Part shown: in pieces, positions 84 through 40,966 of the stretch | How positions within the stretch are numbered: position 1 is the first letter of the stretch | How the letters are laid out: every line of letters starts with the position of its first letter | The notes under the pieces: model-generated | What the model saw: only the letters and a program-made list of their open reading frames with translations | What the model was told of the DNA's origin: nothing | The model's database searches: none | Assembly (NCBI GenBank): GCA_020058315.1 | Contig: JAGVEK010000002.1 | Location: forward strand, 1 to 40,966 | Origin: Candidatus Zixiibacteriota bacterium | Lineage (GTDB): Bacteria; Zixibacteria; MSB-5A5; WJJR01 | Direction: 5' to 3' | DNA length: 40,966 nucleotides | Position numbers and translations under genes: made by a program

Positions 84-626
84 CTAAGCGGTGACGGCTT
101 CGAGCGCGTCGTCGATTTCGTTCAGAAGTTTTTCCTGAAACATGAGTTGTCGCACCAGATTGGCTGCAGCCGTGAAATCCTTTGCGACGTCGATCAGTTC
201 CGCAAGACGCTGATAGTCGACCTTGATCTCGTTCAGCAAACGGACACGGACCGCGTCCAGAGCCTCTTCATTGGCAGCGGTACGGGCCTCCATCACCGCT
301 TCGCGCAATTCCATCTGGCTCACGAGGAATTCCATGGGCATCGCCGTGTTGCTTTCGATCTGCGGATCGTGTCCGAGCAAACCCAGCAGATAGCGCGCGC
401 GCTTGCCGGGCGACTTGAGCGTCTGGAAGGCCTCATTGACCCGTGTCGCCCACTGCATGGCCAGACGCCGGTCGGCAGCCCCTGCATGGGCGTGCTTGTC
501 CGGATGCACCTGGGCCTGAACCGCGCGAAAGCTTTGCTCGAGACTTTCCAGATCGAGCGACTGCGCACGCGGCAAGCCAAACAGCGTGAAATGATCTGCT
601 GCGAAATTCAGGTCAAACGTGGTCAT
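84..626 (-). CDS. hscB: Fe-S co-chaperone HscB (J-domain protein)
   Basis: Within ORF 84..824. The internal Met at 626 gives MTTFDLNFAADHFTLFGLP...VHPDKH, with an HPD J-domain motif. It sits between iscA and hscA. The upstream 66 codons overlap iscA and are rejected. Confidence 0.9.
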   Translation of the reverse strand: MTTFDLNFAADHFTLFGLPRAQSLDLESLEQSFRAVQAQVHPDKHAHAGAADRRLAMQWATRVNEAFQTLKSPGKRARYLLGLLGHDPQIESNTAMPMEFLVSQMELREAVMEARTAANEEALDAVRVRLLNEIKVDYQRLAELIDVAKDFTAAANLVRQLMFQEKLLNEIDDALEAVTA

Positions 627-636
627 CGGGCGAGCA

Positions 637-1041
637 TCAGGTATTGAACGACTCGCCGCAGCCGCAGGCATCCTTGACGTTCGGATTGTTGAACTTGAAG
701 CCCTCGTTGAGGCCCTCGCGCGCATAGTCGAGCTCGGTGCCGGCCAGATAGGGCAGGCTCTTGGGATCGACCAGCACCTTGACGCCGTGGCTGATGAACT
801 CGATGTCCTCGGCGTTGGGCGCATCGGCGAATTCCAGCTTGTAGGCCATGCCCGAGCACCCCGAGGTGCGCACGCCGAGACGAATGCCGATGCCCTTGCC
901 GCGCTTGGCGATGTACTTGGCGATGTGGTCGGCGGCGCGCTCGCTGAGGGTCACCGGGCTCGCGCTTTCGCTGCCCTGCCAATTCTCCGGCGGGACTTGG
1001 GGCGCGGCGGCGGCATCAGTCGTGGTGGTGCAGGCACTCAT
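637..1041 (-). CDS. iscA: Fe-S cluster assembly scaffold/carrier IscA
   Basis: Within ORF 637..1203, start at Met 1041 (MSACTTT...). The C-terminal CGCGESF motif is typical of A-type carriers. The position is iscU-iscA-hscB. Confidence 0.9.
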
Positions 1042-1043
1042 GT

Positions 1044-1427
1044 TCAAGCTCCCTGTTTCTTTCTGTAGTCGGCCACGGCGGCCTTGATCGCATCCTCGGC
1101 GAGGATCGAGCAGTGGATTTTCACCGGCGGCAGCGCAAGTTCTTCCGCGATCTGGGTGTTCTTGATGTCGAGAGCCTGATCCAGCGTCTTGCCCTTGACC
1201 CATTCGGTCACCAGCGACGACGAGGCGATCGCCGAACCGCAGCCGTAGGTCTTGAACTTGGCATCCTCGATGATGCCGTCCTTGCTGACCTTGATCTGCA
1301 GCTTCATGACGTCGCCGCAGGCCGGCGCGCCGACCATGCCGGTGGCGATGCCTTCGTCATCCTTGCCAAAGGAACCCACGTTGCGCGGGTTTTCGTAGTG
1401 ATCCAGTACTTTTTCGCTGTATGCCAT
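1044..1427 (-). CDS. iscU: Fe-S cluster scaffold IscU
   Basis: [20 protein letters not shown]...[11 protein letters not shown]...CGSAIASSS...LPPVKIHCS are canonical IscU motifs. Confidence 0.95.
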
Positions 1428-1457
1428 GATGTTTCTCCAGTATTGCCTTGTCTGACT

Positions 1458-2681
1458 TCAGTGTGCGGCCCACTGCACGGTGCTTAAATCGACGCCTTCC
1501 TTGTACATTTCCCACAGCGGCGACAACTCGCGCAACTTGCCCAGTTTGTCGTGCAGCAGCTTGATCGTGAAATCGATTTCCTCTTCCGTCGTGAAACGGC
1601 CGAGGGTGAAGCGGATCGAACTGTGCGCCAGTTCGTCGGAACGACCCAGCGAACGCAGCACGTAGGAAGGCTCCAGGCTGGCCGAGGTGCAGGCAGAACC
1701 GCTCGATACGGCGATGTCCTTGATCGCCATGATCAGCGACTCGCCTTCGACGAAATTGAAGCTGACATTGAGATTGTGCGGCACGCGCTGCTCGATGTCG
1801 CCATTGACGTAGGTTTCCTCGATGTCCATGAGGCCCTTGAGCAACTTGTCGCGCAGCATGCGGATGCGCTCGTTCTCGGTGGCCATTTCCAGGCGCGCCA
1901 GACGGAAACATTCGCCCATGCCGATGATCTGGTGCGTCGCCAGGGTACCCGAGCGCATGCCGCGTTCGTGGCCGCCGCCATGCATCTGCGCTTCCAGCCG
2001 GACGCGCGGCTTGCGCCTCACGTAGAGCGCGCCGATGCCCTTGGGGCCGTAAGTCTTGTGCGCGCAGAAGGACATCAGGTCGACCTTCAGTTTGCCCAGA
2101 TCGATCGGCATCTTGCCGGTGGCCTGCGCCGCATCGACGTGAAACATCACGCCCTTTTCGCGGCAGATCTCGCCGATTTCGGCCAGCGGATGGATCACGC
2201 CGATCTCGTTGTTCACCGCCATCACCGACGCGACCACGGTGTCCGGACGCAAGGCCGCCTTGAACTGCTCGACGGTGATCAGGCCGTTTTCCTGCGGCAC
2301 CAGATAGGTCGCCTCGAAGCCCTGGCGTTCGAGTTCCTTGACGGTGTCCAGCACCGCCTTGTGCTCGGTGCTCACGGTAATGATGTGCTTGCCCTTGGTC
2401 CCGGCGTAAAAATGCGCGGCACCCTTGATCGCCAGGTTGTTGGATTCCGTGGCGCCCGAGGTCCAGATGATTTCCTTGGCATCTGCACCAACCAGCGCGG
2501 CGACTTCTTCGCGCGCTTCTTCGACGGCTTTTTCCGCCTCCCAGCCATAGGAATGGGAACGCGAGGCCGGGTTGCCGAAATGCTCGGTCAGCCAGGGAAT
2601 CATCTTCGCCGCTACGCGAGGATCCACCGGCGTTGTTGCCGAGTAGTCGAGATACACCGGCAGTTTCATACCTGCTGTCAT
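1458..2681 (-). CDS. iscS: Cysteine desulfurase IscS
   Basis: [19 protein letters not shown]..., the PLP lysine context [10 protein letters not shown] and the active-site loop [13 protein letters not shown] lies 9 nt upstream of the ATG at 2681. An alternative Met at 2669 matches the E. coli N-terminus. Confidence 0.95.
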
Positions 2682-2697
2682 TACCTATTTCTCCAGT

Positions 2698-3864
2698 TCA
2701 GCTTGTGAGGGACGCCAAGCTCGTTAATCCCTTGAGTTGCAAGATTGTAGTATCCAGTGCGGCCAGAAAATCACGTACCTGCGCCGCCGTATTGTCCATA
2801 CCCAGACTCACCCGCACCGCACCGCGAGCCAGCGAGGATGCGACCCCCATCGCCAGCAGCACATGCGAGGGCTCCGGATTGGCGCTGGAACAGGCCGCTC
2901 CGGCCGCCACGGCAAAGCCGGCGCGATCGAGCCTGCTCACCAGCGTCTCGCCATCGATGCCGGGACAGGCGAAGTAGCTGGTGTTGGGCAAGCGCTCTGC
3001 GGCAGCACCGAAGATCGTCGCACCCTGCGCCACCAGTCCGGCTTCGAGTTGCGCACGCATTACCGCGAGTTGCATGGCGCGGGCGTCGAGTCCGGCCACT
3101 GCCAGTTCCGCGGCGAGGCCAAAACCGACAATCGCCGCGACGTTCTCGGTACCCGAACGCAGGCCGCGTTCGTGACCGCCCCCGGCGATCAGCGGCTGCA
3201 ATTCGACGCGCTTGTCGACCACCAGCGCTCCGGCACCCTTCGGCCCGCCCAGCTTGTGCGCGGAGAGCGTCAGGGCATGTATGCCGGCACCGCTGAGCGT
3301 CCGGAAATCCAGCGGACGGCGGCCGAAAGCCTGCACTGCATCGGTGTGGAACCACGCCCGGGTCGGTTTGACCTGGGCCGCGAGCGCGGCGATGTCCTGC
3401 ACCACGCCGGTTTCGTTGTTGGCCAACATGACGGAAACCAGTGCCGGCCTTTGTTCCAGCGCTGCCTGAAAGTCGGCGCTGGCGACACGGCAATTTTCAT
3501 CCACGGCAATCTCGCGTAGCTTCCAGCCGGCGCGCTGCAAAGTTTTCGCCGGCTCGCGCACGCAGGGATGTTCAATCGCGGAAATCGCCACCGTGCCCTG
3601 CGCAAGACAGGCCGCCGCGCCCCTGATGAATAGATTGTTCGCCTCCGAACCGCCGCTGGTAAATACCACTTCAGTCGGATGGGCACCTACGGCATAGGCC
3701 ACCCGCTGCCGCGCCTCGTCGATCGCACGCCGCGCCGCGCGACCGTATTCGTGGCGACTGGAGGCATTGCCGTACTGCTCGCGCAAGTAGGGCAGCATGC
3801 CTTCCAGCACGCGCGGATCCAGCGGCGAGGTGGCGTTGTGATCGAAATAGACGGGAGCGAACAT
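2698..3864 (-). CDS. Second class-V aminotransferase / NifS-like cysteine desulfurase
   Basis: YFDHNATSPLDPRV, TSGGSEANN, SAHKLGGPKG (PLP Lys) and the GAACSS (Cys loop) motifs. It lies between iscR and iscS. Confidence 0.85.
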   Translation of the reverse strand: MFAPVYFDHNATSPLDPRVLEGMLPYLREQYGNASSRHEYGRAARRAIDEARQRVAYAVGAHPTEVVFTSGGSEANNLFIRGAAACLAQGTVAISAIEHPCVREPAKTLQRAGWKLREIAVDENCRVASADFQAALEQRPALVSVMLANNETGVVQDIAALAAQVKPTRAWFHTDAVQAFGRRPLDFRTLSGAGIHALTLSAHKLGGPKGAGALVVDKRVELQPLIAGGGHERGLRSGTENVAAIVGFGLAAELAVAGLDARAMQLAVMRAQLEAGLVAQGATIFGAAAERLPNTSYFACPGIDGETLVSRLDRAGFAVAAGAACSSANPEPSHVLLAMGVASSLARGAVRVSLGMDNTAAQVRDFLAALDTTILQLKGLTSLASLTS

Positions 3865-6242: not shown

Positions 6243-7049
6243 ATGCATCCCACGCTGAACATAGCCGTAAAAGCCGCGCGTCGCGCCGGCCAGATCATCA
6301 ACCGCGCCAGCATGGACGTCGATAAGCTCAGGATTGACGTCAAACAGCAGAGCGATTACGTAACGGAGGTGGACCGTGCCGCGGAAGCCGCGATCCTCGA
6401 AGTACTGCGCGATGCCTATCCGACCCATGGAATTCTAGCAGAGGAGTCCGGACTGGCCGGCACCAGCGCGGACAGCGAATACCAGTGGATCATCGATCCG
6501 CTCGACGGCACCACCAACTTCATCCACGGCGTACCGCAATATGCTATTTCCATCGCTCTCGCCCACCGCGGCGTGATGACCCAAGCGGTGGTCTATGACC
6601 CCAACCGCAATGAAATCTTCACCGCCAGCAAGGGCGGCGGCGCCTTCGTGAACGAAAAGCGCATTCGCGTCGCCAAGCGGACCAAACTGGACGAGGCCCT
6701 GATCGGCACCGGCTTCCCATATCGCATGTTCGACCACATCGACGCCTACCTCGCCATTTTCCGCGACGTCGCACAAAAAACCGCCGGCATGCGCCGCCCT
6801 GGCGCCGCCGCACTGGATCTGGCCTGGGTGGCCTGCGGCCGCATGGACGGCTTCTGGGAACTCGGCCTGTCGCCCTGGGACATGGCCGCCGGCACCCTGC
6901 TGATCACCGAAGCCGGTGGCCTGGTCGGAGACTTGTCGGGCGAAGCCAACTACATGAAGACCGGCAACATCATCGGCGGCAACCCCAAGATATTTGCGCA
7001 ATTGCTGCAACTCATTGCGCCGCATCTGACCGCAAAACTCAAAGCCTGA
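6243..7049 (+). CDS. suhB: Inositol monophosphatase family protein SuhB
   Basis: [16 protein letters not shown]..., [16 protein letters not shown] and the WDMAAG motif. Confidence 0.9.
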
Positions 7050-7172
7050 CCCGAGCCTGAGGTCGGCCGCCTTGACGGCCGCCGTGATCTGAAATCCGGG
7101 GCTCAAGATTGAATAATTCCGGGCCTGGGAATACCATAAACCCCGTAATCCCATATTTACGGAGGTCCCAAA

Positions 7173-7451
7173 ATGAAAACCACCATTGAAATGCCCGATG
7201 ACCTCTTCCGCCGGGCCAAGGCCGTTGCGGCCCTGCAAGGGTTGAGCATGAAGGACTGGCTGACAAACCTCCTTCGTCGAGAAGTCGGCGCCGGCACCAC
7301 GGTGCCCCCGTCAGACCAGGTCCGGGAACAGGAAGCCGACGCATTCATTCAGGAATTGAATCGCCTGGCGTCGGATATTTCCGCTCATTGGCAGGGACCG
7401 CAAGATGCCGTTGCCGCCATACGCGAGCAACGCAGGGATCTCGGCGCATGA
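7173..7451 (+). CDS. vapB: Type II antitoxin (VapB-like)
   Basis: A 92-aa ORF beginning MKTTIEMPDDLFRRAKAVAALQGLSMKDWL, a pattern I recognise in antitoxins. GGAGG RBS. Its stop overlaps the PIN gene start in an ATGA. Confidence 0.7.
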   Translation: MKTTIEMPDDLFRRAKAVAALQGLSMKDWLTNLLRREVGAGTTVPPSDQVREQEADAFIQELNRLASDISAHWQGPQDAVAAIREQRRDLGA

Positions 7452-7870
7452 TTGTCGATGCCTCGGTGTGGGTCGCCAGCGTCCTCGACAAGGATGCGCA
7501 CCATCGAGTCAGTCTCGCGTTCATGCACCGTTTCGTCAAAGAGCGGCAGATTGCCACCGTTCCCTTGCTGGTCTGGGCGGAAATTGCAGGTGCAGTCGCC
7601 CGCCGCACGGGGGACACGACCAGGGGCATGAAGGTGGTCGAACTTGTCGCCGCGAAAATTTGGGTCAGAGGCGTGCCACTGGATACGTCTTTGGCCAGCG
7701 AATCCATGCGTCTTGCCGCCAAATTGCGACTGCGCGGAGCCGACGCCGTCTATGTCGCCCTTGCCGCCGCATGCCATGAGCCGCTGCTTACCCTGGACGC
7801 GGAAATGCTCGAACGCGCCAGTGGCGTGGCGGAAGTATTCACCCCCGAACAGTGGCTGCAGACACGTTGA
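7448..7870 (+). CDS. vapC: PIN-domain toxin VapC
   Basis: Within ORF 7388..7870, Met at 7448 gives MIVDASVWV (first PIN acidic residue). Later acidic motifs are AEIAGA, RGADAVYVALA and TLD. ATGA overlap with vapB. Confidence 0.85.
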   Translation: MIVDASVWVASVLDKDAHHRVSLAFMHRFVKERQIATVPLLVWAEIAGAVARRTGDTTRGMKVVELVAAKIWVRGVPLDTSLASESMRLAAKLRLRGADAVYVALAAACHEPLLTLDAEMLERASGVAEVFTPEQWLQTR

Positions 7871-7872
7871 CC

Positions 7873-7938
7873 GTGGTGCCAGCCAACTCTGCCGCCGAAC
7901 TGGCGGCCCACACCCCCGTAATGCAGCAGTATGTTTGA
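7873..7938 (+). pseudogene. mutS: Orphaned native 5' end of mutS (start region plus ~14-20 codons, truncated by island insertion)
   Basis: The frame reads (V)VPANSAAELAAHTPVMQQ, then YV-stop inside island DNA. HTPVMQQ duplicates the conserved MutS N-terminal motif that continues properly at 40540. Possible starts are GTG 7852, TTG 7867 and GTG 7873/7876. Confidence 0.7.
7909..7928. repeat. attL core (direct repeat CACACCCCCGTAATGCAGCA)
   Basis: An identical 20-mer occurs at 40540-40559. The flanks diverge immediately on both sides. Confidence 0.8.
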
Positions 7939-7989
7939 CTGACTTAAAAAGCCACGCCACCACAGGGTTTCCAGCAATGCATGCTGTCA

Positions 7990-8011
7990 CTGGGCTACCC
8001 ATGGGCTACCT
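7990..8011 (+). repeat. Tandem pair of GGGCTACC motifs (putative integrase arm-type sites, left arm)
   Basis: CTGGGCTACCC ATGGGCTACCT. The same tandem pair occurs at 40402-40423, and inverted copies at 40299-40309 and 40362-40372. Confidence 0.55.
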
Positions 8012-8119
8012 CGCAACGGCGTCAAATGATTATATGAGGGTGAATCCGGACCATCCGACCACCTTCACATTTTGTGGGCGGTCGAATCCGATCCATACCT
8101 GCTTGGGAACTCCGGTTTG

Positions 8120-8860
8120 TCAAACGAAGTGTAGTAGCAGCCGGCCGATTGAGTTCGTCAGGTCTCTGGCAAACACGGCCAGCCATTTCTGAGAGTCATC
8201 GGCAAAGTGTGATTCGCTGAACCCATTGCGGGAGTTGGCAACTGCATTTGTCAGCGTCGGAATTGAGTTTACTATCTGCTCGGGAAACTCGCCTCGGGCT
8301 CTCAGCTTTTCGGTGATGTCATCTTTGACCACCTTGCAAAGCTGCATAAGGTCGCTTAGGCCGATACTCTGAGGCACATGCCGCCGCACATAGGTCTTGT
8401 ACAGGCCTTCGAGGCACGTGTAGGCGAGCGTGACAGCACGATTGAACTGCTGGGCATCAATCGCATGATCAATGTCCTTGAGGCTGTTATTCAGCTTTTC
8501 GGAGTTCCAAAGGTCCACCGGCACCACGGCAGCAGGGACCGCTTGCCCTCCGCCAAACACGACGGCTCGAATTTCTTCAACCTCATCCTTGGCATACGGT
8601 TCAAGCGCATCAATCAACAGTCTGAAAAGCTGGTATTTGTGCTGCTCGGGAAGCTCCTTGACGATTTCCCAGTAGAACGATTTACGGGAGGTGCTCTTTC
8701 CCTGCTGGTTCAATATTGGGATGAGCTGTTCGTAGCTTGGAATTCCAGGGTCCACCTGCTGTGCCATGCGAAGGAAGTTTGGACCACTGTGATAGGTTGG
8801 ACCTTCCCTGTTCAACAGAATGAACAGACGGTTGTAGGCTGCTATCCAGTTGACTGACAT
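8120..8860 (-). CDS. Abi_C/HEPN-like protein (gene 4 of the four-gene cassette)
   Basis: 246 aa. The C-terminal half has the pattern ...LEGLYKTYVRRH...IPTLTNAVANSRNGFSESHF..., i.e. an R-x6-H motif in a helical context as in Abi_C/HEPN domains (recognised by eye). Its ATG directly abuts the TAA of the upstream gene (8860/8861). Confidence 0.7.
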   Translation of the reverse strand: MSVNWIAAYNRLFILLNREGPTYHSGPNFLRMAQQVDPGIPSYEQLIPILNQQGKSTSRKSFYWEIVKELPEQHKYQLFRLLIDALEPYAKDEVEEIRAVVFGGGQAVPAAVVPVDLWNSEKLNNSLKDIDHAIDAQQFNRAVTLAYTCLEGLYKTYVRRHVPQSIGLSDLMQLCKVVKDDITEKLRARGEFPEQIVNSIPTLTNAVANSRNGFSESHFADDSQKWLAVFARDLTNSIGRLLLHFV

Positions 8861-9541
8861 TTACGCTAGGGGTGCAGGCAAACTGCTTCGCAATAAGGGC
8901 AATAGTTCGTTCAGGTGGTTGGCTGAAACTTTCATCGATCCGCTGCTTGTTAGGTGAATGGGGACGATTTGCGAGCCCATCATGACTTTTACTTGGACCA
9001 TTTCCAACACGAATTTCTTCTTCACTGAAATATGCTGCAATGCCTCTCTTACATCCCTCTCCCCCCTGAGAAGAATTTTTGCCCTGACACCGTCTTCAAG
9101 CTCGAGTCCGGAGACTTGAAGTGAATCAACAAGTATCTTCTGATCAATTCTCTGTTGGAACGCCTGCACCCAATCAAGCAGGTTGACTGAAACAGGAGTG
9201 ACAGTCAGGGAGAAGTTGCAAAGCTCAAGCAGCTTGCTAACGAATTCCTTGGTACTTCTTTGGGAATTGCGAAGCTCAATATTTGGGAATTCCGAAAACA
9301 AAGTGAAGTCGACGTCACGGTAAACAACCCTGTCAAACACTTCCTGGTTGCCAAAGGGATCAGTCGTAGTCTCTTGATAGGCCAGCTTCTCAATAAAACG
9401 AGCGTCGATAGCATTATCTCGAATGCGGTCAATTACGAAGCCGTCAAAGCTATTGGGAGCGAAAAGCTGAGTCTTCATTTTCGCTCCGAGAGTTCGAATG
9501 GACACGGGCCATTTGGCGCTCAACCAACGGACACGTTTCAT
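8861..9541 (-). CDS. Hypothetical protein (gene 3 of the cassette)
   Basis: 226-aa ORF. The start at 9541 forms an ATGA overlap with the stop of the upstream gene. The alternative Met at 9478 gives MKTQLF.... No recognisable motif. Confidence 0.7.
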   Translation of the reverse strand: MKRVRWLSAKWPVSIRTLGAKMKTQLFAPNSFDGFVIDRIRDNAIDARFIEKLAYQETTTDPFGNQEVFDRVVYRDVDFTLFSEFPNIELRNSQRSTKEFVSKLLELCNFSLTVTPVSVNLLDWVQAFQQRIDQKILVDSLQVSGLELEDGVRAKILLRGERDVREALQHISVKKKFVLEMVQVKVMMGSQIVPIHLTSSGSMKVSANHLNELLPLLRSSLPAPLA

Positions 9542-10677
9542 GGATCGATTTCTCCGGGTTGGTCAGCTTCGGGAATCTCCGGTACCAAGCCCTTACGAAT
9601 CTCCGCAATGGTAGCGTTCGCAGTCTGCTCAATGAGGGACAGGAGTTTCTCTTTAGCCTCAGCATCAATGGGCCTGAGAGTCTTGGTGTATTCACCTTCT
9701 GAAAAATTCAATGCTCCACGAACCGAGTATTTGAACCCCTTGCCATCCTCCGGCTCCTCGAATGCCGCCTCAAATTCGACTATCGGATACGGAATGGTCG
9801 TCTCCTTTGCTCGCCAGATAATTGAAGTTATGAAGAACCCCTTTTTGACAAGGCTTTGATATTCCTCCGAGGCCAGCAAAGTTTCACCCTTCAAGGCCAC
9901 ATTCCTTACAAGTGCCAGCGCCTCTTGTTTGGCTTGCTCCTTGTTCTGATCATCTTCGAGGTCCAATTCGTCCTCTTCGGGCTCCCTCTTGATGGGCTCC
10001 ACCTTCACGCTGGTGACATTGTCCAGTTTGAAGCCCTTAAGCTTGCTTATCAGCGACGTGAAGAATTCGGTCCTTGATGCGGCGCTCTTGAACTCGCCAA
10101 TTTCGATTGAATCGGTTGGTATATCGGTCTTCTTCTTGCCGTCCAGTTTGCCTTTTAATTTGGAAACAACCTCCTTTGCCTTGGCATTCGATGGCATGCG
10201 AATAACCGTCTTATCGCCATCAACATGGAACTCAATACCTGCCTCCTTGGGCGTACGTTGAACGAGTCTCGTCTTGCCGTAGTCAATTTCCGAGTATTTG
10301 ACGTTAACTACAAATTGATCGGTTCCCTTTGAGTGGGAAGTAATCGTTTCATCTGCAGGCGATTCGCTGGTGTACTCCTTAACCACCTCTTTTATTTCCT
10401 CAACCGTCAAGGCGGCATTCAGGGTAACTGACGTCAACTTCTCCGACCTGCCCGCGTGCTCGCGATGGTCAAGGATGATATTTAGGTCATGGTAGTCGTG
10501 CGGAAGCAGGGACAAATAATTTACGAGTGTCTCCCTACCATCCTTTGGCGAAAGAAATATTCCTCTATCTTTCGCAAGCTCGAGAACGACACCGGCGTGA
10601 ATTCTCTGCTTTGCAGACATAAGGACATCATAGATTTCCTTGTCGGTAGCGCAGTAAAGGAGATTGTTTTTAGACAT
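9538..10677 (-). CDS. Hypothetical protein with an acidic/lysine-rich central linker (gene 2 of the cassette)
   Basis: Within ORF 9538..10734, Met at 10677 (MSKNNLLYCATDKEIY...) overlaps the upstream stop by 8 nt. No recognisable catalytic motif. Confidence 0.75.
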   Translation of the reverse strand: MSKNNLLYCATDKEIYDVLMSAKQRIHAGVVLELAKDRGIFLSPKDGRETLVNYLSLLPHDYHDLNIILDHREHAGRSEKLTSVTLNAALTVEEIKEVVKEYTSESPADETITSHSKGTDQFVVNVKYSEIDYGKTRLVQRTPKEAGIEFHVDGDKTVIRMPSNAKAKEVVSKLKGKLDGKKKTDIPTDSIEIGEFKSAASRTEFFTSLISKLKGFKLDNVTSVKVEPIKREPEEDELDLEDDQNKEQAKQEALALVRNVALKGETLLASEEYQSLVKKGFFITSIIWRAKETTIPYPIVEFEAAFEEPEDGKGFKYSVRGALNFSEGEYTKTLRPIDAEAKEKLLSLIEQTANATIAEIRKGLVPEIPEADQPGEIDP

Positions 10678-11653
10678 TTTGCATGCCCAGTTCAAGCTCG
10701 GAAAATTTGGTACGAACGTCGTTGATCTGAGCAAACTTAATGGTATTCAGCCGATCACGAATTTCGGGGCCACCTTCATACTCGTCCACATACTGATCTT
10801 TGGCCTTTTCGAAAAACGCCGCAGCGTTTGGATGAGGGTCCAGCGTCTTGACATGGACATCGGTGTCACCCACCAGAACCTGGTAGTGCATCAGGTGGTC
10901 AATTAGATATAAAAACTCTTCAACCGATTCGCCACGCTTACGGTAGAAGATAACGAAGCCCTTGCGGTTTTGCTTCTTTGGGTCAGTGTATGAAAGAATA
11001 ATCCAAGGCGCGGTAAGCATTTCCAAGGTTCCCGCCTTGGCATGCTCAGGCTGAACATTCTTCCTTCTGACTAAATGCGGGTAGAAGAATTTGCAGTGTT
11101 CCCGGTCGGGAAGCTCGCCGGCACCACCTCGCATGTAAGCAATCTCATGATGAACATTGTTCAGCCAGAAGATATCCCGTGGCCCGAACACAACGATCTT
11201 TGACTTGCTTGGAATATCTAGCTTTTCGTTCTTCACCTGTCCAAGCAGGCCACCAAAGTCCTTGTCGTATTCACCATCGTGGTTGTAGACAAAGAGAAGA
11301 CCGCAAATTTCTGGTGATACATGGTCGTGGAGAAACTTTGCCCTAAATTCATCGCTTTTTTCGGCACAGCTTAAGCCGCGCGCGAGACTCTCAATTGCTG
11401 CCCGAATGGCACCAACGGATATTGACCCCTTGGCGTAGCTTTTGAGGTCGCAGTTCACGTAGGTTCTTGCCTGTGAGTACGGCTCTTCATAGTAAAAAAC
11501 AACATCCGAGGGATGTGTTTCCGCCTTGTGCACCTCCTTATTCTCGCAAGGCCAGTTCAGATTCGTTGGACCCATCTTTTGCCATAGGAACTCTGCGAAG
11601 AGTTCCTTTGACAGTTTCTCGGCCATCTTTGCAATATTGGTAGTTTCTGCCAT
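10670..11653 (-). CDS. Hypothetical protein, possible PD-(D/E)xK nuclease fold (gene 1 of the cassette)
   Basis: 327 aa with a GAGGGAAC RBS. ...ETHPSDVVFYYEEPYSQARTYVNCDLKSY... gives P-S-D, then 18 residues, then D-L-K, as in restriction-endonuclease-like cores. The assignment is by eye only. Confidence 0.75.
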   Translation of the reverse strand: MAETTNIAKMAEKLSKELFAEFLWQKMGPTNLNWPCENKEVHKAETHPSDVVFYYEEPYSQARTYVNCDLKSYAKGSISVGAIRAAIESLARGLSCAEKSDEFRAKFLHDHVSPEICGLLFVYNHDGEYDKDFGGLLGQVKNEKLDIPSKSKIVVFGPRDIFWLNNVHHEIAYMRGGAGELPDREHCKFFYPHLVRRKNVQPEHAKAGTLEMLTAPWIILSYTDPKKQNRKGFVIFYRKRGESVEEFLYLIDHLMHYQVLVGDTDVHVKTLDPHPNAAAFFEKAKDQYVDEYEGGPEIRDRLNTIKFAQINDVRTKFSELELGMQNV

Positions 11654-11991
11654 GTTCCCTCGTCACCATGTAGGTTCGGAAATTTCGCCGAGAGGATCCA
11701 CCACTCCCTTGGCGGCATGTGAACTAAGTCCTTCGTATCGGTGGCCGAATAGCTGTTTGCCCTTCTTGCCGTCTGCAACAATCATATACCCAAAGCATGA
11801 CCGGCAATCACTGCGTCATCACGTTGACGAAGCACCATTCCGCCGAAACACAATAGGACAAAACACTACAAGAGGATGGGGGTAGCGCTGCCTAACCCCG
11901 CCTCTCACAAAGTACCGAATCACTGTCTTGGACCACACTTACAAGTCATTGCGGCTAACGTCGTAGGGGTGCGTTCATAAAAAGCGCCAAA

Positions 11992-12852
11992 TCAGGCCTG
12001 CAATTTCCTTAGGACTTTTTCAGTCGACCGAAAAATTTGCTCAGCCTCCTCCGCGGCCTCCCTCGCCTCTTTCTCGTTCGCGGACCAGCGGGCCAGACTC
12101 TCCAAATATCCCGACAGGGACATCCACTCGAACGGCTCGTCAGTGGGGCCGCAAAGCAGGGCCTGGATGAAGTCGTAAGGACGGCGGTCGGCCGGTCGGC
12201 AGAAGAGCCACTCCTCGTCGGGGTCCGCGTTTAGAAGAAAGTCCTGGAGGCTGGCGAAGAGGCAGCGGTTCGTTTGGACGGCTACGCCCATGTCCGTCAG
12301 CGCCTTGATCCTTGCGTTCTCGGCCTTCATTGATTTTGGGCCTCGCTTGCGAGGCGCTGCGGATGATGCGCCGCCGAACATCCCGAACAAGGCGGCGAGC
12401 CCCGGCGGCTCCGCCATCACGGGAGCCTCCGACACCCCCTGTCGGGATTCCGTTGCTCCCTCATCTGCCACGCTTGAACTAGGGGGCTGGAATGCCGCCC
12501 TAGGGGGCTGGAATGCCGCCCGAGGTGCCTGGTGCGCCGGCCAAGGCTCCCCTATCCTCTTGCAGAACTCATCCCCCATGAGCAAGGCCAACGTCCGCTC
12601 CGCGGCCGAGAGGCCGTTTGAGTTGTGCCTCTTGGCATATTCAAGAAGGTCGGTCACGGCATAGACGACCTTGCCGCCGCGGCGCTGAAACGGAATTTTC
12701 GCCTTGCCGTCAGGTTCCCTGCGGCTTGTCAGCCGCTGGCTTTTGAGGGCCGACACGGAAAGGTGAACCATCATCCCAGCCTGCTGTGTGTTGACCGCGC
12801 AAAACGGCCCTTCCACGGCCGCCTTGGCCATGACGTCATCAAACACTGTCAT
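11992..12852 (-). CDS. HTH-containing island protein, paralog-like of the int-adjacent 209-aa protein
   Basis: 286 aa. The N-terminal MMVHLSVSALKSQRL...GKVVYAVTDLLEY resembles AlpA/excisionase-type HTH. Its C-terminal segment (CLFASLQDF...FEWMSL) parallels MCFSTLSDF...IVWMPM of ORF 38063..38692. Confidence 0.7.
   Translation of the reverse strand: MTVFDDVMAKAAVEGPFCAVNTQQAGMMVHLSVSALKSQRLTSRREPDGKAKIPFQRRGGKVVYAVTDLLEYAKRHNSNGLSAAERTLALLMGDEFCKRIGEPWPAHQAPRAAFQPPRAAFQPPSSSVADEGATESRQGVSEAPVMAEPPGLAALFGMFGGASSAAPRKRGPKSMKAENARIKALTDMGVAVQTNRCLFASLQDFLLNADPDEEWLFCRPADRRPYDFIQALLCGPTDEPFEWMSLSGYLESLARWSANEKEAREAAEEAEQIFRSTEKVLRKLQA
12479..12520. repeat. In-frame 21-bp tandem duplication inside CDS 11992..12852
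   Basis: CTAGGGGGCTGGAATGCCGCC occurs twice and perfectly (12479-12499, 12500-12520), followed by a degenerate third copy. It encodes PRAAFQP PRAAFQP. Confidence 0.9.
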
Positions 12853-12998
12853 CGCTTACCCCCTTTTGTTCTTTTTGTCAAAACAAGGTGCCAGATTACC
12901 TCAAACGACTATAGCCGCCGGCATTTTCACCCGAGTTTCGACTCGCCCCCCCGCCATCCGGAGACTGCGTTCCTTCACCACACACAAGGAGCGCAATC

Positions 12999-14156
12999 AT
13001 GAGCAATGCAACCGCAGCAACCGCAAGAGAACTCGTTTTCGAGGTCACGGACCAAGGCGACATCACGTCCTTTATCCGCGGCAAGCCCGCAGCGACAAAC
13101 GCAAAGCCCGAAGCATGCGTGCCGCGTGAATTCCTCAACAGATTGTCGGCGGCGAATCCTGGCCTTTGGAAACTGGTCGACGATGTTCGTCGCCGGATGA
13201 TCGCCGAAAAGAAAGGGTGGCCTGAGTGGTGTTTCCTGCCGGATTGGGGATGGACGGCTGTCGCAATTGAGAACGAGACGATCAGGCACAAAGATTTTTC
13301 GCCGACGGGCACGGATTTCGTCGAACACATGTATCGGGCGAAAACCGAACAGACCTTTTTCGGAACATGGCGGCTGACCCAGGGGGCCTATCGCTTCGAT
13401 CCGACGCTTTACAAGGCCTTGCTCGAAACACCGCTGACGGGAAACATCCCTTCCGAGATTCTCACCCGCTTGCCGGAATGGGCCGTCTACATCGAGACAC
13501 CCGACATCAAGCATCCCTCGGGCATGCCGTTGGACGGATTCGGGGCGTGCCTGTGCCATGAGCCGACCCTGGGCGACTGGATCGAGTTCCACCTGTTCGT
13601 CGCCATGCCCGACGGCAGCCGCCAACGCGGGTCGCACAGCGTCGTGCTCAATGGCGGGACCATCGAGGAGTCAGGTAAATGGATTGACGGGGAAAACGCG
13701 CTTGTATCCGAATTTCTGGGCACCGCCAACCCCACGTCCCCCTTCGACGAGAAAGCCTGGACGCCATTTGTCGGAAAGCTGCTCTCACTGCTGTTGTGGC
13801 TTTGCAGCGAGGAGCCGGAAATCGGATCGGGCACGCCTCCGAAACTTCCGACGCCGGTGAGGACAAAGAAGGGTCAGCGGTTCTTCCCGGCCGCCCAACC
13901 CAAGGTTTGGGACGTCGGCGTCCGGATCGGGGCCGCCCTCAACGCCGCCGCCGCAATCGCCAAAGCCTCCGGCGACGAAGAGGACGAGGCCGACCCGCGT
14001 GCACGCCCTCGAGGACACATCAGGCGGGCTCACTGGCACACATACCGCACCGGCCCGGGGGGTTCCGTGCGAAAGCTCCGATGGATGTCACCCATCCTCG
14101 TGAACATGCGGACCTGCGACGACCTGCCGGCCGTGATCCATCCCGTAATAAACTAA
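12999..14156 (+). CDS. Hypothetical protein with a basic C-terminal HxRRAHWH motif
   Basis: 385 aa with an AAGGAG RBS. The C-terminus reads RPRGHIRRAHWHTYRTGPGGSVRKLRWMSPILVN. No family could be named from memory. Confidence 0.75.
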   Translation: MSNATAATARELVFEVTDQGDITSFIRGKPAATNAKPEACVPREFLNRLSAANPGLWKLVDDVRRRMIAEKKGWPEWCFLPDWGWTAVAIENETIRHKDFSPTGTDFVEHMYRAKTEQTFFGTWRLTQGAYRFDPTLYKALLETPLTGNIPSEILTRLPEWAVYIETPDIKHPSGMPLDGFGACLCHEPTLGDWIEFHLFVAMPDGSRQRGSHSVVLNGGTIEESGKWIDGENALVSEFLGTANPTSPFDEKAWTPFVGKLLSLLLWLCSEEPEIGSGTPPKLPTPVRTKKGQRFFPAAQPKVWDVGVRIGAALNAAAAIAKASGDEEDEADPRARPRGHIRRAHWHTYRTGPGGSVRKLRWMSPILVNMRTCDDLPAVIHPVIN

Positions 14157-14171
14157 TCCAAGGAGAATGAA

Positions 14172-14936
14172 ATGAGCAATTTTGTCGATTACGAAATTCA
14201 CATGGTCGGCACCGCCGACGCGTTGCGGGCAGCGGTCCAGGTCATTGCAACGACGGTTGCGAAACACGGCGATGGTGCTAAGCACGGAAACTGGAATTGG
14301 GGGGGAATTCCAACCATCGAGGACGGGTACTCCGATGCTGATTTCGGGTTCGTATCCTGTCGGATGCAGATTCAGGAAATTTGCAAGGGGCTGATCATTG
14401 TCTCAAAGGTATTTCCGGAAATGAAAATTTTCGTGAACGAACAATGCACCGACGGATGCGTTGAATCCCGTCTGAACTTGATCGCGAAGGGCAAGGAAAA
14501 AGGACTCCTCGAGTCTTGTAACACCCCGTTCTATCTGGAGGAATTCTTGGCGATTTTCGAATTGCGTCGCCGCAAGGACGCCGAATCGCTTGCTGGGATC
14601 ATCGGCGCGATGATCCGAACGTGCCATGCCGGAGACGACTACATGGCCCTAAGCCTCGACACCATGGCCAAGGAGGTGACGTCGGTCATCAAGAAAAACC
14701 CCGCCTTGGCGACCGATCCGCAGACCCTCGAACTTCTTCAAACGCTCTGTCCGATGCTGCAGAACCTTTGCGGACCCGATGAGGACGAATACGAAGGCAT
14801 GCGATTTAAATACGCGGAAGGGCTCGAGACCGCCTTTGAGGCCGCGGCTTTGTCACTGTCGACAAAGAAGGCCCTCAAGACCGCCGGCAAGGGGAAGGGC
14901 AGGAAATGCCGGCCAGTGTCGGAGGCCTCGGTATGA
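14172..14936 (+). CDS. Hypothetical protein
   Basis: 254 aa with an AAGGAG RBS, 15 nt after the upstream stop. Its stop overlaps the nuclease gene start (ATGA). Confidence 0.7.
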   Translation: MSNFVDYEIHMVGTADALRAAVQVIATTVAKHGDGAKHGNWNWGGIPTIEDGYSDADFGFVSCRMQIQEICKGLIIVSKVFPEMKIFVNEQCTDGCVESRLNLIAKGKEKGLLESCNTPFYLEEFLAIFELRRRKDAESLAGIIGAMIRTCHAGDDYMALSLDTMAKEVTSVIKKNPALATDPQTLELLQTLCPMLQNLCGPDEDEYEGMRFKYAEGLETAFEAAALSLSTKKALKTAGKGKGRKCRPVSEASV

Positions 14937-15421
14937 GCCGCTGGCTTTTGCTTTCCGCGGTTCTGGCCGCCACGATTCAACCGGCGTATTGCGGTACGCT
15001 TTCAGGCCGGGTCGTGGCGGTCTCCGACGGGGACACCCTCACCGTCCTCGATAGCGAAAACAGGCAACACAAAATCCGTGTCGCCGGCATCGACGCACCC
15101 GAGCGAAAGCAACCGTTCCGACAGCGTTCCAAAAGCGGGCTATCGGATTGCTCATTTGGGAAAACGGTGGAGATCGTCGGCGACAAACGGGACAAATATC
15201 GCCGGACCGTAGGCAAGGTGATCGCCGACAGCCGTGACTGCGGACTCGCTCAGGTCAATGCCGGCCTTGCTTGGCATTACAAGGCATATGAGCGGGAGCA
15301 GCCGAAGGCCGACCGTGAGGCCTATTCCCAAGCGGAGGATGCGGCCAGGAAGGCAGGGGTGGGCCTTTGGTCGGAGCCCTCCCCCGTCCCGCCATGGGAA
15401 TGGCGAAAGGGGCGGCGGTAA
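14933..15421 (+). CDS. Secreted staphylococcal-nuclease (SNase/thermonuclease)-like nuclease
   Basis: Within ORF 14906..15421, Met at 14933. It has a signal-peptide-like MSRWLLLSAVLAATIQPAYC. Then VVAVSDGDTLTV...IRVAGIDAPE...GKTV...DKYRRTVG...VNAGLAWHYKAY... matches SNase-fold motifs. The RP4 ParB nuclease belongs to this fold. Confidence 0.8.
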   Translation: MSRWLLLSAVLAATIQPAYCGTLSGRVVAVSDGDTLTVLDSENRQHKIRVAGIDAPERKQPFRQRSKSGLSDCSFGKTVEIVGDKRDKYRRTVGKVIADSRDCGLAQVNAGLAWHYKAYEREQPKADREAYSQAEDAARKAGVGLWSEPSPVPPWEWRKGRR

Positions 15422-15452: not shown

Positions 15453-18400
15453 TCATGAGAAAAGGTATGACGCCACTTCCCATCTGCTTATGGGGTGCTC
15501 TGCGATCCATCCGGAAAGATCTTCCAAGTCGTGAAGCTCGACATGGTTCATCCTCGCCTGATACCGGGCCGTGCCGTTGAACCTGCGGTTAGTGACAGCC
15601 GCGAGGGAGAACCTCACGCCGGGAAATCTGGCCGCGTAGTCCGCGGCCCCGGCCACCACGTTCTGAATCGCCTCCCATCCGAGTTCTCGTCCGTCAACCG
15701 TCGAGCTCTTGCACTGGATGAGCACTCCCTCGGCACCGGAAATGGCGACGACGTCCACACCGCCGTCTCCGCTCCTCGGGGTCTTGATTGTCTTCGCGTA
15801 TCCACGCTTATTCCAAAGGATCGCGCACAGCGCCTCAAAGGCATCCGGATCCAGTGACTCTAAATCCGCAGCAGTGAGATGCTCGTCGCCGAACGCACTA
15901 CGCCCTCCCGGCGCGCCGAGATCGCCGAAGTCGCCCGCCTTGAGATCGCCCGTACCGTTCAGCATGTCGGTGGAAAGGGAGCGTTTCCATGTGAGCAGAA
16001 CGTCGAGCTTGGCGTCGAACGTCGTAAAGTCGTCGGCGACGACGACGGGGTAGTACACAAACACGTCGCGTGTCTGTCCGATTCGATAGGCACGGTCAGT
16101 CGCCTGGTCCTCCTTGGCGGGATTCCATGTGCGGGTGAAATGGACGACGTGGTTCGCCGCCTGGATGTTCACACCGAAGCCCACGGCAAGGGGCGAAAGA
16201 ACGATGACCCCGAAGCCCGGTTTGTCCTGGAACGCGCGGATTCTCTTCTGCCTGTTGTTCGCGTTCTCCGCCGCGGCCGACGTGTCCCCGTTGATTACGT
16301 CAGGCGTGAAGCCGAACCGCTCTAGGATCGCGCGCTGGAGTGTGCGCTGCAGATCGCGAAACTCGCAAAACACAATCGCCTTCTCGCCCTTGCTTTTTAT
16401 GCTTTCCAACTGTTTCAGGAGCCACGCCATCTTCGGTGAGTGTGCCTCGATTTCCGACAAGGTGAGCCGATCTGTCCCGATGCTTCCCGGTGGCTTAGGA
16501 TCGGAGCAAAGTCTTCGCAGGTATTGAAGCAAGCCAAGATGACTTTCAATGCCCGTCCCGGAGCCTTCGCGAGCCCGGCGGTGGAAAGCCCCGACCGCGT
16601 CGGCGTAGTGTGCCCGCTGACGCTCCGATATCGGGAGACTGCGGCATTCGGTGACCTCGATTTTTCGCGGCAGATCCTTGGCGACGTCAGCCTTCGTCCT
16701 CCTCAGGATTTGAGGCTCAATAATCTCGCGCAATTCGGCGACTCTGGCCTTCTCCTCCTCAGTCTCCGCCTCGATGGGTTTGCGGTAGCGCGTCCCGAAA
16801 TCCTTGAGCGCACCGAGCAACCCGGGTTGGACGAAGTCAAACAGACACCAAAGATCGGTGAGAGTGTTCTCGACGGGCGTCCCGGTGCAGGCGATCCTGA
16901 ACCGGGCGTTCTGTTTCTTGGCGGCGCGCGTCACCATCGCGCTTGGGTTCTTTATTTTCTGAGCCTCGTCGCAAATGATCGCGGACCACCTCTGCGCAGC
17001 CAGTGAGAACTCCAAGTCGCGAAGCGTCTCGTAGGTCGTCAGGACAACCTTGGAGTCGCCCAGCCATCCTCTCGTAAGCAGACGCGTGATTCCGGAGCCA
17101 GCCAGGTCTTCGTCCACCGCGTCGCGCGGAAGGCGCTTGCCCGCCAACGCCGGGCCGTAAAGCGTCAGCACAGGGAGAGCACCTTCGTTGAAAAACTTCC
17201 CGATCTCCTCTTTCCAATTCTCCAACAGAGACACGGGCGCCACGATCAGGAACGGAGCACTTCCCGGCTCATCCTCCAATATCCTTGCTATAAAGGTGAG
17301 CAACTGGATTGTCTTGCCCAAGCCCATGTCGTCGGCCAGCACGGCTCCGCGGCACTCCGCGGGAGACATCGACCATAGATGCTGGAGCCACGCGACGCCG
17401 TCGTTTTGGTGATCTTTGAGCGAGATGTCCGGTCTCAGCGACGACGGCAGCCTCGGGACCGAGCCGCGCGGCAGCGCGAGAGCCCCGCAGCGCTCCTCGT
17501 AGTCGAGTCTCTCGACGTTCGGTTTGACGACGAGACCCTTGCGCTCCTTGCACTTGCCCTTGGCCTTCTCCGGGTCGAACGTCCCCTTATCGACATCCCT
17601 TTTCGCGTCCGCGAGCGTGTCCAGCATGTCAGAGGCAAGATCAACAGGGACTGGCTTGGGGCAGCCGGGGAAGTCAAACGACGCGCGGCCGTCCTCCTTG
17701 GCCTTGCGGACCTCCTCGCGAAATTCCTCAATCGTCTCCGCGTTCAGCGCTACGGCGACCGTCTCTCCGTCGGCGCCCATAGTATGGAAGAAGCCGAAGT
17801 CGACGTTGTCGGGGAACCACCCGGCGTCCTCGCTCTTCCTCGCTATGAACGGCGAGTAATACGGCTTCTCGACGCCGAAACCCTCCACACGCTCGGAATA
17901 CAGCGAAAGGTCGAAAATATCCGACGCCTTGAAACCCTTCCGGCTAGAAATGTCCGCGAGGGCTAACCGGAGCAGCTCTGCCTGATCCGGGGTGTCGCCC
18001 AGAATCTCAAGGTCGTGGCCCTCCCAGTGGCAACACTGCGCGTTTGCCGCAATCCTGGAATCCAGCTTGGAAAGGAACACCGACAGATCCTTCACGCCTT
18101 CGAACCGTACGGTTTCGCCTCTCACGTCGCCGCCGATGATTTCCTGTATGAGCAGCGACACGTCGAACGGATAGCCGGACGCATCGCGTCTCACCCTGGC
18201 GGTGAAGCGGGAGAAAGGGATGCCAGCATCCTCTCTGGCCTGTTCGAATTGCTGGGCGTCGACCACCTTCTCCGCGTCCGGACCCAGCGTAGCGAACGGA
18301 TTGCGAAGGAACGCCTCGGCGCGATCACCTGCAACGCGGCGCCCCGGCATGCGCTTTATCTCTCGAAGTACGGTCGCCACCTCAGAAGATATCAGCACGT

Positions 18401-19196: not shown

Positions 19197-19199
19197 TCT

Positions 19200-21652: not shown

Positions 21653-21658
21653 CGCCCT

Positions 21659-23686: not shown

Positions 23687-23809
23687 CGACGTCTTTCTTT
23701 TTTTGTGTAGTCGCTTGGAACTCTGAACACCGACTTGAACCTCCCTAACTGAAAGTCCGCTTCGAGTGCCCCACGCCGCGCCTATTCTCCCTTGACGCAT
23801 AGCCCGTTG

Positions 23810-23838
23810 ATTATATGCCCACGTCAGACGGGTCAGTC
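23810..23838 (-). promoter_or_regulatory. Possible zorA promoter (perfect TATAAT, weak -35)
   Basis: The minus strand reads ...GACTGA-N17-TATAAT (the -10 is the complement of 23810-23815), ~120 nt upstream of the zorA ATG. The -35 is poor, so this is tentative. Confidence 0.3.
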
Positions 23839-40518: not shown

Positions 40519-40966
40519 GTGGCGGAAGGCATCGAAAAGCACACCCCCGTAATGCAGCAATGGCTGCGCGCCAAGGCAGAGCATGCGGACAAGCTGCTGT
40601 TTTTCCGCATGGGGGATTTCTACGAGCTGTTTTACGAAGATGCCCAGCAAGCCGCTCGCCTGCTCGACATCACGCTGACCGCGCGCGGCCAGTCGGCCGG
40701 CAAGCCGATTGCGATGGCCGGCATTCCCTACCACGCGGTCGACGGCTATCTGGCTAAGCTGGTCAAGCTCGGCGTCTCGGTGGCCATCTGCGAGCAGATC
40801 GGCGACCCTGCGCTGGCAAAGGGCCCCGTCGAGCGCGCAGTGACGCGCATCGTCACGCCGGGCACGCTGACTGATGCCAATCTCCTCGACGATCGCAACG
40901 ACAGCCTGCTGCTGGCGCTGACCATCGACCGCCAGCGCGCGGGGCTGGCCTGGCTCAACCTCGCCA
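40519..40966 (+). CDS. mutS: DNA mismatch repair protein MutS, 5' part with island-supplied start (runs off window end)
   Basis: The frame reads (V)[56 protein letters not shown]...IPYHAV...ICEQIGDP..., the canonical MutS domain I. The start is uncertain (GTG 40519, TTG 40495 or ATG 40552). It is not in the ORF track because there is no stop in the window. Confidence 0.85.
40540..40559. repeat. attR core (direct repeat CACACCCCCGTAATGCAGCA)
   Basis: Identical to 7909-7928. It lies in frame within mutS codons HTPVMQQ. Confidence 0.8.

Follow-up and report, generated by a model that had tools for sequence, protein, structure and literature searches.

Four genes packed on the minus strand of a contig of Candidatus Zixiibacteriota bacterium (GenBank assembly GCA_020058315.1, contig JAGVEK010000002.1) raise the question of which defence system they encode, and of whether they form one four-part machine or 2 modules that share a transcript. 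We analyzed this cassette in the window, that is, the whole stretch of 40,966 nucleotides (nt) formed by positions 1 to 40,966 of the contig, in which it occupies positions 8120 to 11653. The preliminary description of this DNA had found no named defence system that the cassette would fit and had treated genes 2 and 3 as orphans. Both statements have to be revised because genes 1 to 3 match the profiles of Hp1, Hp2, and Hp3, the 3 proteins of the system known as 3HP. Judged from their protein profiles, genes 1 to 3 are a new member of this named and validated system, so that 3 of the 4 genes have an assignment, which also removes genes 2 and 3 from the orphans. The fourth gene plausibly encodes an AbiJ-like HEPN protein, and we consider it probable that this gene is an independent module that hitchhikes behind 3HP. 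The genes of the cassette and the motifs to which the text refers are the following.

10670..11653, minus strand, gene 1 (Hp1), 327 amino acids (aa)
11441..11512, minus strand, putative active site of Hp1, PSD-x18-DLK, residues 48-71
9538..10677, minus strand, gene 2 (Hp2), 379 aa counted from the ATG
8861..9541, minus strand, gene 3 (Hp3), 226 aa
8120..8860, minus strand, gene 4 (candidate AbiJ-like HEPN add-on), 246 aa, with a helical N-terminal domain (approximately residues 1-102) and a helical C-terminal domain (approximately residues 115-245)
8207..8230, minus strand, RNGFSESH (R211-x6-H218), gene-4 residues 211-218, candidate HEPN Rx4-6H catalytic motif
11654..11991, minus strand, upstream non-coding region of 338 nt, presumed operon promoter, read from sequence

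The assignment of genes 1 to 3 comes from profile searches. The PADLOC models PDLC03004 (Hp1), PDLC03005 (Hp2), and PDLC03006 (Hp3) matched gene 1 (E 2.4e-63, approximately the full length of both protein and model), gene 2 (E 2.9e-44, approximately full length), and gene 3 (E 2e-16, approximately full length), respectively. The same 3 genes matched PHROG families 7059 (E 5.6e-109), 6531 (E 1e-93), and 5850 (E 2.8e-36). In 3HP, the genes for Hp1, Hp2, and Hp3 are adjacent and co-directional and encode proteins of approximately 325-335, 360-380, and 226 aa, to which genes 1 to 3 of the window conform. In 5 other settings, protein searches detected this trio with unchanged order and sizes and likewise with overlapping open reading frames (ORFs); the settings are given here with the identity of their Hp1.

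Conjugative Pseudomonas nitroreducens plasmid, Hp1 65% identical
Filamentous Pf-like Pseudomonas phage, Hp1 54% identical
Klebsiella P2-like phage, Hp1 34% identical
E. coli P2-like element, Hp1 34% identical
Enterobacter plasmids, Hp1 30% identical

Rousset et al. (2022) described a three-gene system without predicted domains, located in a hotspot of P2-like phages, that protects against phage P1. Later surveys refer to it as 3HP or Rst_3HP (Rst_3HP in DefenseFinder, 3HP in PADLOC), and a survey from 2024 found Rst_3HP unassignable to any known domain family and listed it as unclassifiable. When the E. coli trio WP_000508501, WP_001085272, and WP_000756244, which appears among the P2-encoded loci in Table S5A of Rousset et al. 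and may be the trio that was cloned, was compared with genes 1 to 3 by tblastn, the identities were 34, 32, and 22% over the full length. Searching the cassette DNA against 5,426 complete E. coli genomes gave no match, and the kinship to the E. coli 3HP is thus visible only in protein. Scans of viral contigs returned 0 loci with the Hp3 query and 1 locus with the Hp1 query. Pseudomonas phage 54-4 (OR621021.1, Tubulavirales, Pf-like, 13.2 kb) carries a complete 3HP at 485-3252 beside its repressor and excisionase. Altogether, genes 1 to 3 share with 3HP the profiles, gene order, protein sizes, overlapping ORFs, and a mobile-element setting, whereas they differ in that their products are only 22-34% identical to the E. 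coli and Klebsiella P2-type proteins, in that they reside outside P2 prophages, on an integrative mobilisable island in mutS, and in that a fourth gene follows them, which canonical 3HP does not have.

The 4 minus-strand ORFs are packed exactly as had been reported, including all 3 junctions: genes 1 and 2 overlap by 8 nt (10670-10677), genes 2 and 3 overlap by an ATGA (9538-9541), and the TAA of gene 3 abuts the ATG of gene 4 (8861/8860). These overlapping and abutting ORFs support the single, tightly coupled operon that had been proposed. For gene 2, translation could also start from a TTG at 10734; the homologs, however, are 379-380 aa long. The GC content of the whole cassette is 0.491 versus 0.61-0.62 in suhB, zorD, and the neighbouring ORF, which bears out the foreign composition deduced earlier from hand counts of 24/60, 34/60, and 36/60 (all 3 counts are exact). 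Within the cassette, the GC content of gene 4 (0.524) is higher than that of genes 1 to 3 (0.47-0.485), and so is its GC content at third codon positions. A Shine-Dalgarno-like GAGGGAA directly precedes the ATG of gene 1. The minus strand upstream of gene 1 contains no match to the sigma-70 consensus, so that the promoter of the cassette is a presumed one, and neither a consensus promoter nor a terminator could be assigned when the operon was scanned. No Rfam families were found across positions 6500-13500.

The profiles also place Hp1 and Hp2 in relation to the GAPS4 system. Gene 1 matched the NCBIfam model GapS4a (NF047933) with an E-value of 1.5e-7 and 31 bits over residues 9-239. The NCBIfam cut-offs are 270 bits for NF047933 and 300 bits for GapS4b (NF047934), and by score gene 1 is thus outside the GapS4a family (31 versus 270 bits), yet homologous to it. 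Homologs of Hp1 with 68-84% identity carry a precomputed match to the Pfam family PF26115, PDDEXK_GAPS4. The PSD-x18-DLK arrangement, in which the preliminary description had already recognised a PD-(D/E)xK-like nuclease, is located at residues 48-71, and the GAPS4a-type profile matches agree with that reading. Its residues P48, S49, and D50 and D69, L70, and K71 are invariant in 20 sequences with identity down to 34%. GAPS4a is a divergent PD-(D/E)xK enzyme whose N-terminal motif, HGxD...SxK, contains an Asp that is essential for defence. The Hp1 motif corresponds to it in position; the first half of the two motifs is similar (H47-P-S-D50 in Hp1), whereas the second half is DxK in Hp1 (D69-L-K71) and not SxK. 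From the profile matches and the invariant motif, we predict that Hp1 is a GAPS4a-type PD-(D/E)xK nuclease.

For Hp2, 5 of the 25 family members matched the GapS4b model NF047934 (25-33 bits, best E 3.4e-8). In the Klebsiella P2-type Hp2, residues 14-314 align to positions 8-329 of the 355 positions of the model, and 1 Hp2 homolog shows a faint match to PF26110 (GAPS4b_N). This suggests a remote homology between the Hp2 family and GAPS4b that extends over approximately the whole length of Hp2. A Pfam scan of the 4 proteins of the window gave no significant match, with a Pfam copy that apparently does not contain PF26115 and PF26110.

GAPS4 is an anti-phage system that forms an a2b2 complex with the b subunits in a ring (Mahata et al. 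2024-2025). Upon sensing DNA breaks, it turns into a non-selective DNase, and its mode of action is abortive infection. In the 2 GAPS4 papers that we searched, we found no mention of 3HP. The likeness between the two systems lies in the homology of Hp1 to GAPS4a, with the catalytic motif at the same N-terminal position, and in the remote homology of the Hp2 family to GAPS4b. In contrast, GAPS4 is a two-gene system (a and b, separate or fused), whereas 3HP always has the conserved third gene for Hp3; the Hp1 motif is the canonical D...DxK version (PSD...DLK) and not HGxD...SxK; and the scores of the 3HP proteins are far below the cut-offs of the GAPS4 families.

The third protein of the trio is related to DNA-binding proteins by its predicted structure. 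The AlphaFold2 model of Hp3 has a pLDDT of 92 and a pTM of 0.84, and its best Foldseek match in the PDB was E. coli RdgC (2owl_A, E 8.1e-8, probability 1.00, TMq 0.52), followed by P. aeruginosa RdgC (2owy_A, E 1.3e-6) and then by CENP-L/Iml3. RdgC-type proteins of viruses matched the model as well (E 7e-7 to 1e-3). This set of relatives, RdgC and then CENP-L/Iml3, is the one reported for RexA. According to the structure paper on lambda RexA, the fold shared by RexA, RdgC, Iml3, and Chl4 is a scaffold for non-specific DNA binding; RexA is the DNA-sensing half of the Rex phage-exclusion system, and RdgC proteins modulate RecA and replication restart. The model thus gives Hp3 an RdgC/RexA-type fold and makes it a probable DNA binder. 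Differences from RdgC and RexA are the lack of similarity to Hp3 at the sequence level and the size of Hp3 (226 aa versus approximately 300); moreover, TM-scores of approximately 0.5 with a large root-mean-square deviation indicate that the domain arrangement differs from that of RdgC. Profile searches of the PDB with alignments of gene 4, Hp3, and Hp2 produced no matches. The depositors of phage 54-4 labelled its Hp3 an "RdgC-like exonuclease", in agreement with the result of the fold comparison. We also considered whether Hp3 could be a piece split off from GAPS4b or a paralog of Hp2. Both were rejected on an hhalign probability of 0.2% between Hp3 and Hp2, and a GAPS4b fragment is further ruled out by the fact that Hp2 alone spans the GapS4b model. 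The Hp3 family comprises 792 clusters at 50% identity (E up to 0.001), of which the best 150 are all stand-alone proteins of approximately 225 aa.

Gene 4 belongs to a different kind of family, and several weak matches point to the same assignment. The PADLOC AbiJ model matched gene 4 with an E-value of 2.1e-3 over residues 116-221, and it matched relatives from Acinetobacter, Akkermansia, and Bacteroidales, which are 35-45% identical to gene 4, with E-values of 1.3e-6, 1.7e-4, and 8.9e-5. In gene 4 and these 3 divergent relatives, the matched region of the model is the same (approximately positions 126-267). One relative has weak matches to the Pfam families HEPN and HEPN_RiboL-PSP (E 0.03-0.05), and a homolog with 78% identity is named "HEPN domain-containing protein" by NCBI. 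The residues R211, N212, and H218 of the RNGFSESH motif are invariant in 20 homologs and are kept in the relatives of 35-45% identity. In the AlphaFold2 model, which is all-helical with 2 domains (pLDDT 76.8), the motif is located in a loop of low confidence preceding the last helix of the C-terminal bundle. Anantharaman et al. (2013) described the AbiJ-type architecture and HEPN genes embedded in other defence operons. Gene 4 resembles AbiJ in its helical N-terminal domain of approximately 100 aa followed by a C-terminal helical domain with the conserved R-x6-H, in a weak match of its HEPN region to the AbiJ profile, and in being embedded in other defence operons. It differs in that the matches of the family are weak (16-26 bits) and in that the family is unusually conserved, with 66-85% identity across genera. 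Gene 4 has 555 detectable homologs; the best 120 of these are 72-85% identical, 246-251 aa long, and mostly from Betaproteobacteria. No name for this family was found in the defence databases that we searched. Altogether, these data make it plausible that gene 4 is an AbiJ-like HEPN protein.

Whether gene 4 belongs to 3HP was analyzed in 2 capped samples, one of 36 gene-4 loci (one genome per species) and one of 16 3HP loci that had been retrieved with no regard to gene 4. Hp1-3 were found upstream of gene 4 in only 3 of the 36 loci (Aromatoleum, an Azoarcus metagenome-assembled genome (MAG), and one other MAG), and the other 33 were without 3HP. Conversely, no gene 4 was present downstream of 3HP in the 11 metagenomic loci with at least 800 nt of downstream sequence, 2 of which have an Hp1 that is 79-80% identical to that of the window, or beside the 5 phage and plasmid 3HP cassettes. 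The check across genomes that the preliminary description had proposed thus revealed no general co-occurrence (3/36 and 0/16).

The partners of gene 4 are diverse. In 7 loci, its homolog is directly preceded by a gene for a GHKL (HATPase_c_3) protein of approximately 650-690 aa, and the closest relative of gene 4 (85% identity) is among those that sit after this ATPase. Other upstream partners are the Shedu protein SduA (E 7e-160) and a DUF2971 protein; HNH proteins adjoin some loci, and the gene-4 homolog also occurs inside BREX operons between brxC and pglX. Close spacing occurs irrespective of the identity of the upstream gene: in 19 of 37 distinct loci, gene 4 starts no more than 10 nt from the stop codon of a co-directional gene upstream, and in 8 of these 19 the 2 genes overlap by an ATGA. 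Comparison of the window with non-3HP loci showed that DNA similarity starts and stops at the boundaries of the gene-4 ORF. A cassette with conserved flanks, such as an attC-like site, was rejected on these grounds. We conclude that gene 4 is autonomous, a hitchhiker of ORF size that uses the expression of upstream defence genes.

Some of the gene-4 loci showed further features. The GHKL ATPase (HATPase_c_3, E 1e-19) has a C-terminal nuclease-like sequence ...RPDF...VIVDLKT..., lies 0-4 nt upstream of the gene-4 homolog, and has only weak REase_II and MzaB matches in PADLOC; the ATPase and the gene-4 homolog may constitute an unnamed two-gene defence pair. The BREX locus has the order BrxC, a protein of 615-625 aa without PADLOC match, gene-4 homolog, PglX, BrxHI, and PglZ, in which the gene-4 homolog overlaps the 615-aa gene by an ATGA, and the BREX placement was found in 3 further loci. 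Next after the four-gene cassette of Aromatoleum comes a protein of 1651 aa (8940-13895) that, judged by eye, unites a NERD-like N-terminus with a protein-kinase-like region and a superfamily-1 helicase.

The four-gene form of the cassette nevertheless recurs in some Betaproteobacteria; it was found in Rhodoferax, Thauera, Aromatoleum, Azoarcus, and several metagenomic contigs, and is thus a real variant architecture of 3HP. It is present in 2 Hp1 clades, each nested among three-gene cassettes, which implies at least 2 gains or several losses. This recurrence is what the integrated system envisaged by the preliminary description would draw on. In it, genes 2 and 3 would be sensor or scaffold proteins that control a DNA nuclease (gene 1) and an RNA nuclease (gene 4), which would amount to a subtype of 3HP with the HEPN protein as an obligate subunit. 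The order Hp1-Hp2-Hp3-gene 4 is kept with a spacing of 0-6 nt in the window and in these other genomes and contigs, the link exists in both Hp1 clades, and at least 9 of 112 Hp3 clusters share their longest-contig size with a gene-4 cluster (a rough heuristic). However, defence in E. coli requires no more than the three-gene 3HP, 3HP cassettes with an Hp1 79-80% identical do without gene 4, and gene-4 homologs of equal or higher identity are located behind unrelated genes. Moreover, tight coupling is a general habit of the gene-4 family, and the gene-4 tree does not separate the 3HP-linked copies from the others. An integrated four-part system is thus unlikely, and the evidence favours 2 adjacent modules over one four-part machine. 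Another role for gene 4 would be that of a regulator or safety device, namely an inhibitor or immunity protein of the upstream nuclease system, in which the R...H serves binding and not RNA cleavage. This would fit the position of gene 4, always at the 3' end of operons with potentially self-toxic enzymes (Hp1, Shedu, the GHKL ATPase with its nuclease-like C-terminus, BREX), and the lack of a confident HEPN fold match. Since the upstream partners are structurally unrelated, one protein conserved at 66-85% identity is hardly a specific regulator of all of them; the invariant RNx5H and the consistent matches to the AbiJ model fit a catalytic HEPN domain, and most 3HP, Shedu, and BREX loci work without gene 4. 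We regard such a regulatory function as very improbable. The least probable explanation that we considered concerns genes 1 to 3, which could be a DNA-processing module, made of an RdgC-like recombination modulator and a nuclease, that serves the maintenance, replication, or transfer of the element. The action of RdgC proteins on RecA and replication restart and the presence of 3HP cassettes on plasmids, phages, and elements like integrative and conjugative elements agree with this. However, a member of the 3HP family was shown to protect against phage P1, the cassette of P2-like phages occupies a known defence hotspot, the cassette of the window is in a defence island with Zorya, and GAPS4, the nearest characterised relative, is an anti-phage system.

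Several observations weigh against the explanation that we consider probable, in which 3HP and an independent gene 4 are 2 defence modules on one transcript and 3HP works like GAPS4. The arrangement of 3HP and gene 4 with 0-6 nt spacing in 2 separate Hp1 clades could be the product of selection that favours a functional partnership, as opposed to hitchhiking alone, and the Hp1 and gene-4 trees are neighbour-joining trees without support values. The validated E. coli 3HP is only 22-34% identical to the proteins of the window. The relationship to GAPS4 is remote (25-33 bits versus cut-offs of 270-300), and the window's own Hp2 gave no direct match to the GapS4b model, so that the homology between Hp2 and GAPS4b is a remote one at the level of the family. 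The role of Hp3 and the trigger are extrapolated, as a third subunit does not exist in GAPS4. As for gene 4, a Foldseek search of the whole model against the PDB returned a best E-value of 1.5, with Csm6 and AbiA only at E 4-6; Pfam Abi_C did not match gene 4, and Pfam AbiJ_NTD did not match gene 4 or the 3 relatives (NTD1 and NTD2 may not be in Pfam), which leaves weak profile matches as the basis of the HEPN assignment. Of the Abi/HEPN-like reading of gene 4 that had been put forward before, the motif therefore stands together with weak but consistent AbiJ profile matches, whereas the fold search lends it no significant support.

With these points taken into account, 2 defence modules on one transcript are still what we consider probable. 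Because Hp1 is GAPS4a-type, Hp2 a remote GAPS4b relative, and Hp3 of RdgC/RexA-type fold, 3HP probably works like GAPS4, that is, as an abortive DNase triggered by aberrant DNA. By analogy with GAPS4, Hp1, Hp2, and Hp3 would assemble into a complex in which Hp2 and Hp3 (the latter probably as a dimer) would recognise DNA ends generated by the phage or intermediates of replication and recombination, upon which Hp1 would degrade DNA and abort the infection. In gene 4, the N-terminal helical domain may act as sensor or inhibitor, and the C-terminal HEPN domain, as an RNase with the RNx5H motif, may act as suicide effector. Gene 4 would repeatedly settle immediately downstream of unrelated defence genes and borrow their transcription and translation; behind Hp3, it would add a second, RNA-directed layer without being a subunit of 3HP. 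A bolder version, which we hold to be unlikely, is that the gene-4 family is a universal plug-in HEPN effector, translationally coupled to and activated by the upstream sensor, be it 3HP, the GHKL ATPase, Shedu, or BREX. If this were true, the cassette of the window would be a dual-effector machine directed at DNA and RNA, and the gene-4 family would be a shared output module of otherwise unrelated immune systems.

We also analyzed the surroundings of the cassette. A perfect direct repeat of 20 nt, CACACCCCCGTAATGCAGCA, encloses an island of 32.6 kb, and the end of gene 4 lies 192 nt inside its left copy, which confirms the position of the cassette at a mobile element's edge, as first described. 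The main features of this island are as follows.

7909..7928, plus strand, left repeat copy (attL-like), encodes an orphaned peptide end (...HTPVMQQYV and stop)
40540..40559, plus strand, right repeat copy (attR-like), within the 5' end of mutS
15453-23887, complete Zorya type I operon (ZorA, ZorB, ZorC, ZorD), 3.8 kb from the cassette
34163-38053, TrwC relaxase/helicase, inside the island
38744-40297, tyrosine integrase with an Arm-DNA-bind_3 domain, at the far end of the island from the cassette
7992, 8003, 40300 (minus), 40363 (minus), 40404, and 40415, and also 32536 (minus), copies of the octamer GGGCTACC

Positions 40519-40965 match residues 5-150 of E. coli MutS (E 2e-58). Since the right repeat is in mutS and the left copy carries the orphaned peptide, the element integrates in the 5' end of mutS and gives this gene a new start. 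SXT does much the same at prfC. Counted from the left edge, the cassette is thus the first cargo of this integrative mobilisable element, which is 32.6 kb long and inserted in the 5' end of mutS. The octamer GGGCTACC is present in 7 copies versus 0.46 expected, and 6 of them lie within approximately 250 nt of the repeat copies; they are likely arm-type binding sites of the integrase at 38744-40297. The complete Zorya operon that had been noted approximately 4 kb away was found with its 4 genes. The remaining content of the island includes an SNase-domain gene, a replication-initiator-like gene, and a ParA-like gene.

Directly beside the zorD end of Zorya, a gene at 14906-15421 encodes an SNase-domain protein of 171 aa (Pfam SNase, E 1.6e-20), which also matches the PADLOC candidate C3a212 "SNc+LTD" (E 2e-9). 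Iteron-like repeats of 22 nt, AAAGCCCGTAGTNGAGCGCACC, are present at 24061-24104, 24349-24392, and 26648-26779, with 5 tandem copies among them, and the gene located between them (24556-25743) has a weak replication-initiator (RPA) match; together, the repeats and this gene may be the replication origin of the element. An ORF at 11992-12852 (286 aa, without family match) contains a perfect tandem duplication of 21 nt at 12479-12520 that results in the peptide PRAAFQP-PRAAFQP. A second patch of low GC content, at 28101-31131 (0.48-0.49 near 29.5-31 kb), encodes a DUF5677 protein of 527 aa and an RDD-family membrane protein of 381 aa and may be further foreign cargo. Outside the island, a pair of genes for a ParD-like antitoxin and a PIN toxin (7173-7870) lies between suhB and the left repeat, convergent with gene 4. 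Up to suhB (6243-7049), the window contains core genes, among them cysteine desulfurase-type aminotransferases, a serine acetyltransferase-like gene, and a SpoU methylase.

The cassette is a variant of what is known already, and nothing in it is categorically new. Its value lies in what the parts say about their families. 3HP, which has so far been without assigned domains or mechanism, gains a testable model as a GAPS4-like abortive DNase that would sense DNA ends or damage and that includes a RexA/RdgC-type DNA binder, and the links between GAPS4 and the Hp1 motif name residues to mutate in 3HP. Gene 4 represents a strongly conserved, unnamed family of plausible AbiJ-like proteins that moves as nothing more than its ORF and comes to lie at most a few nt from the stop codons of many different defence genes. 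It thereby exemplifies how second-layer effectors would spread through defence islands, and it cautions that translational coupling is no proof of a shared machine.

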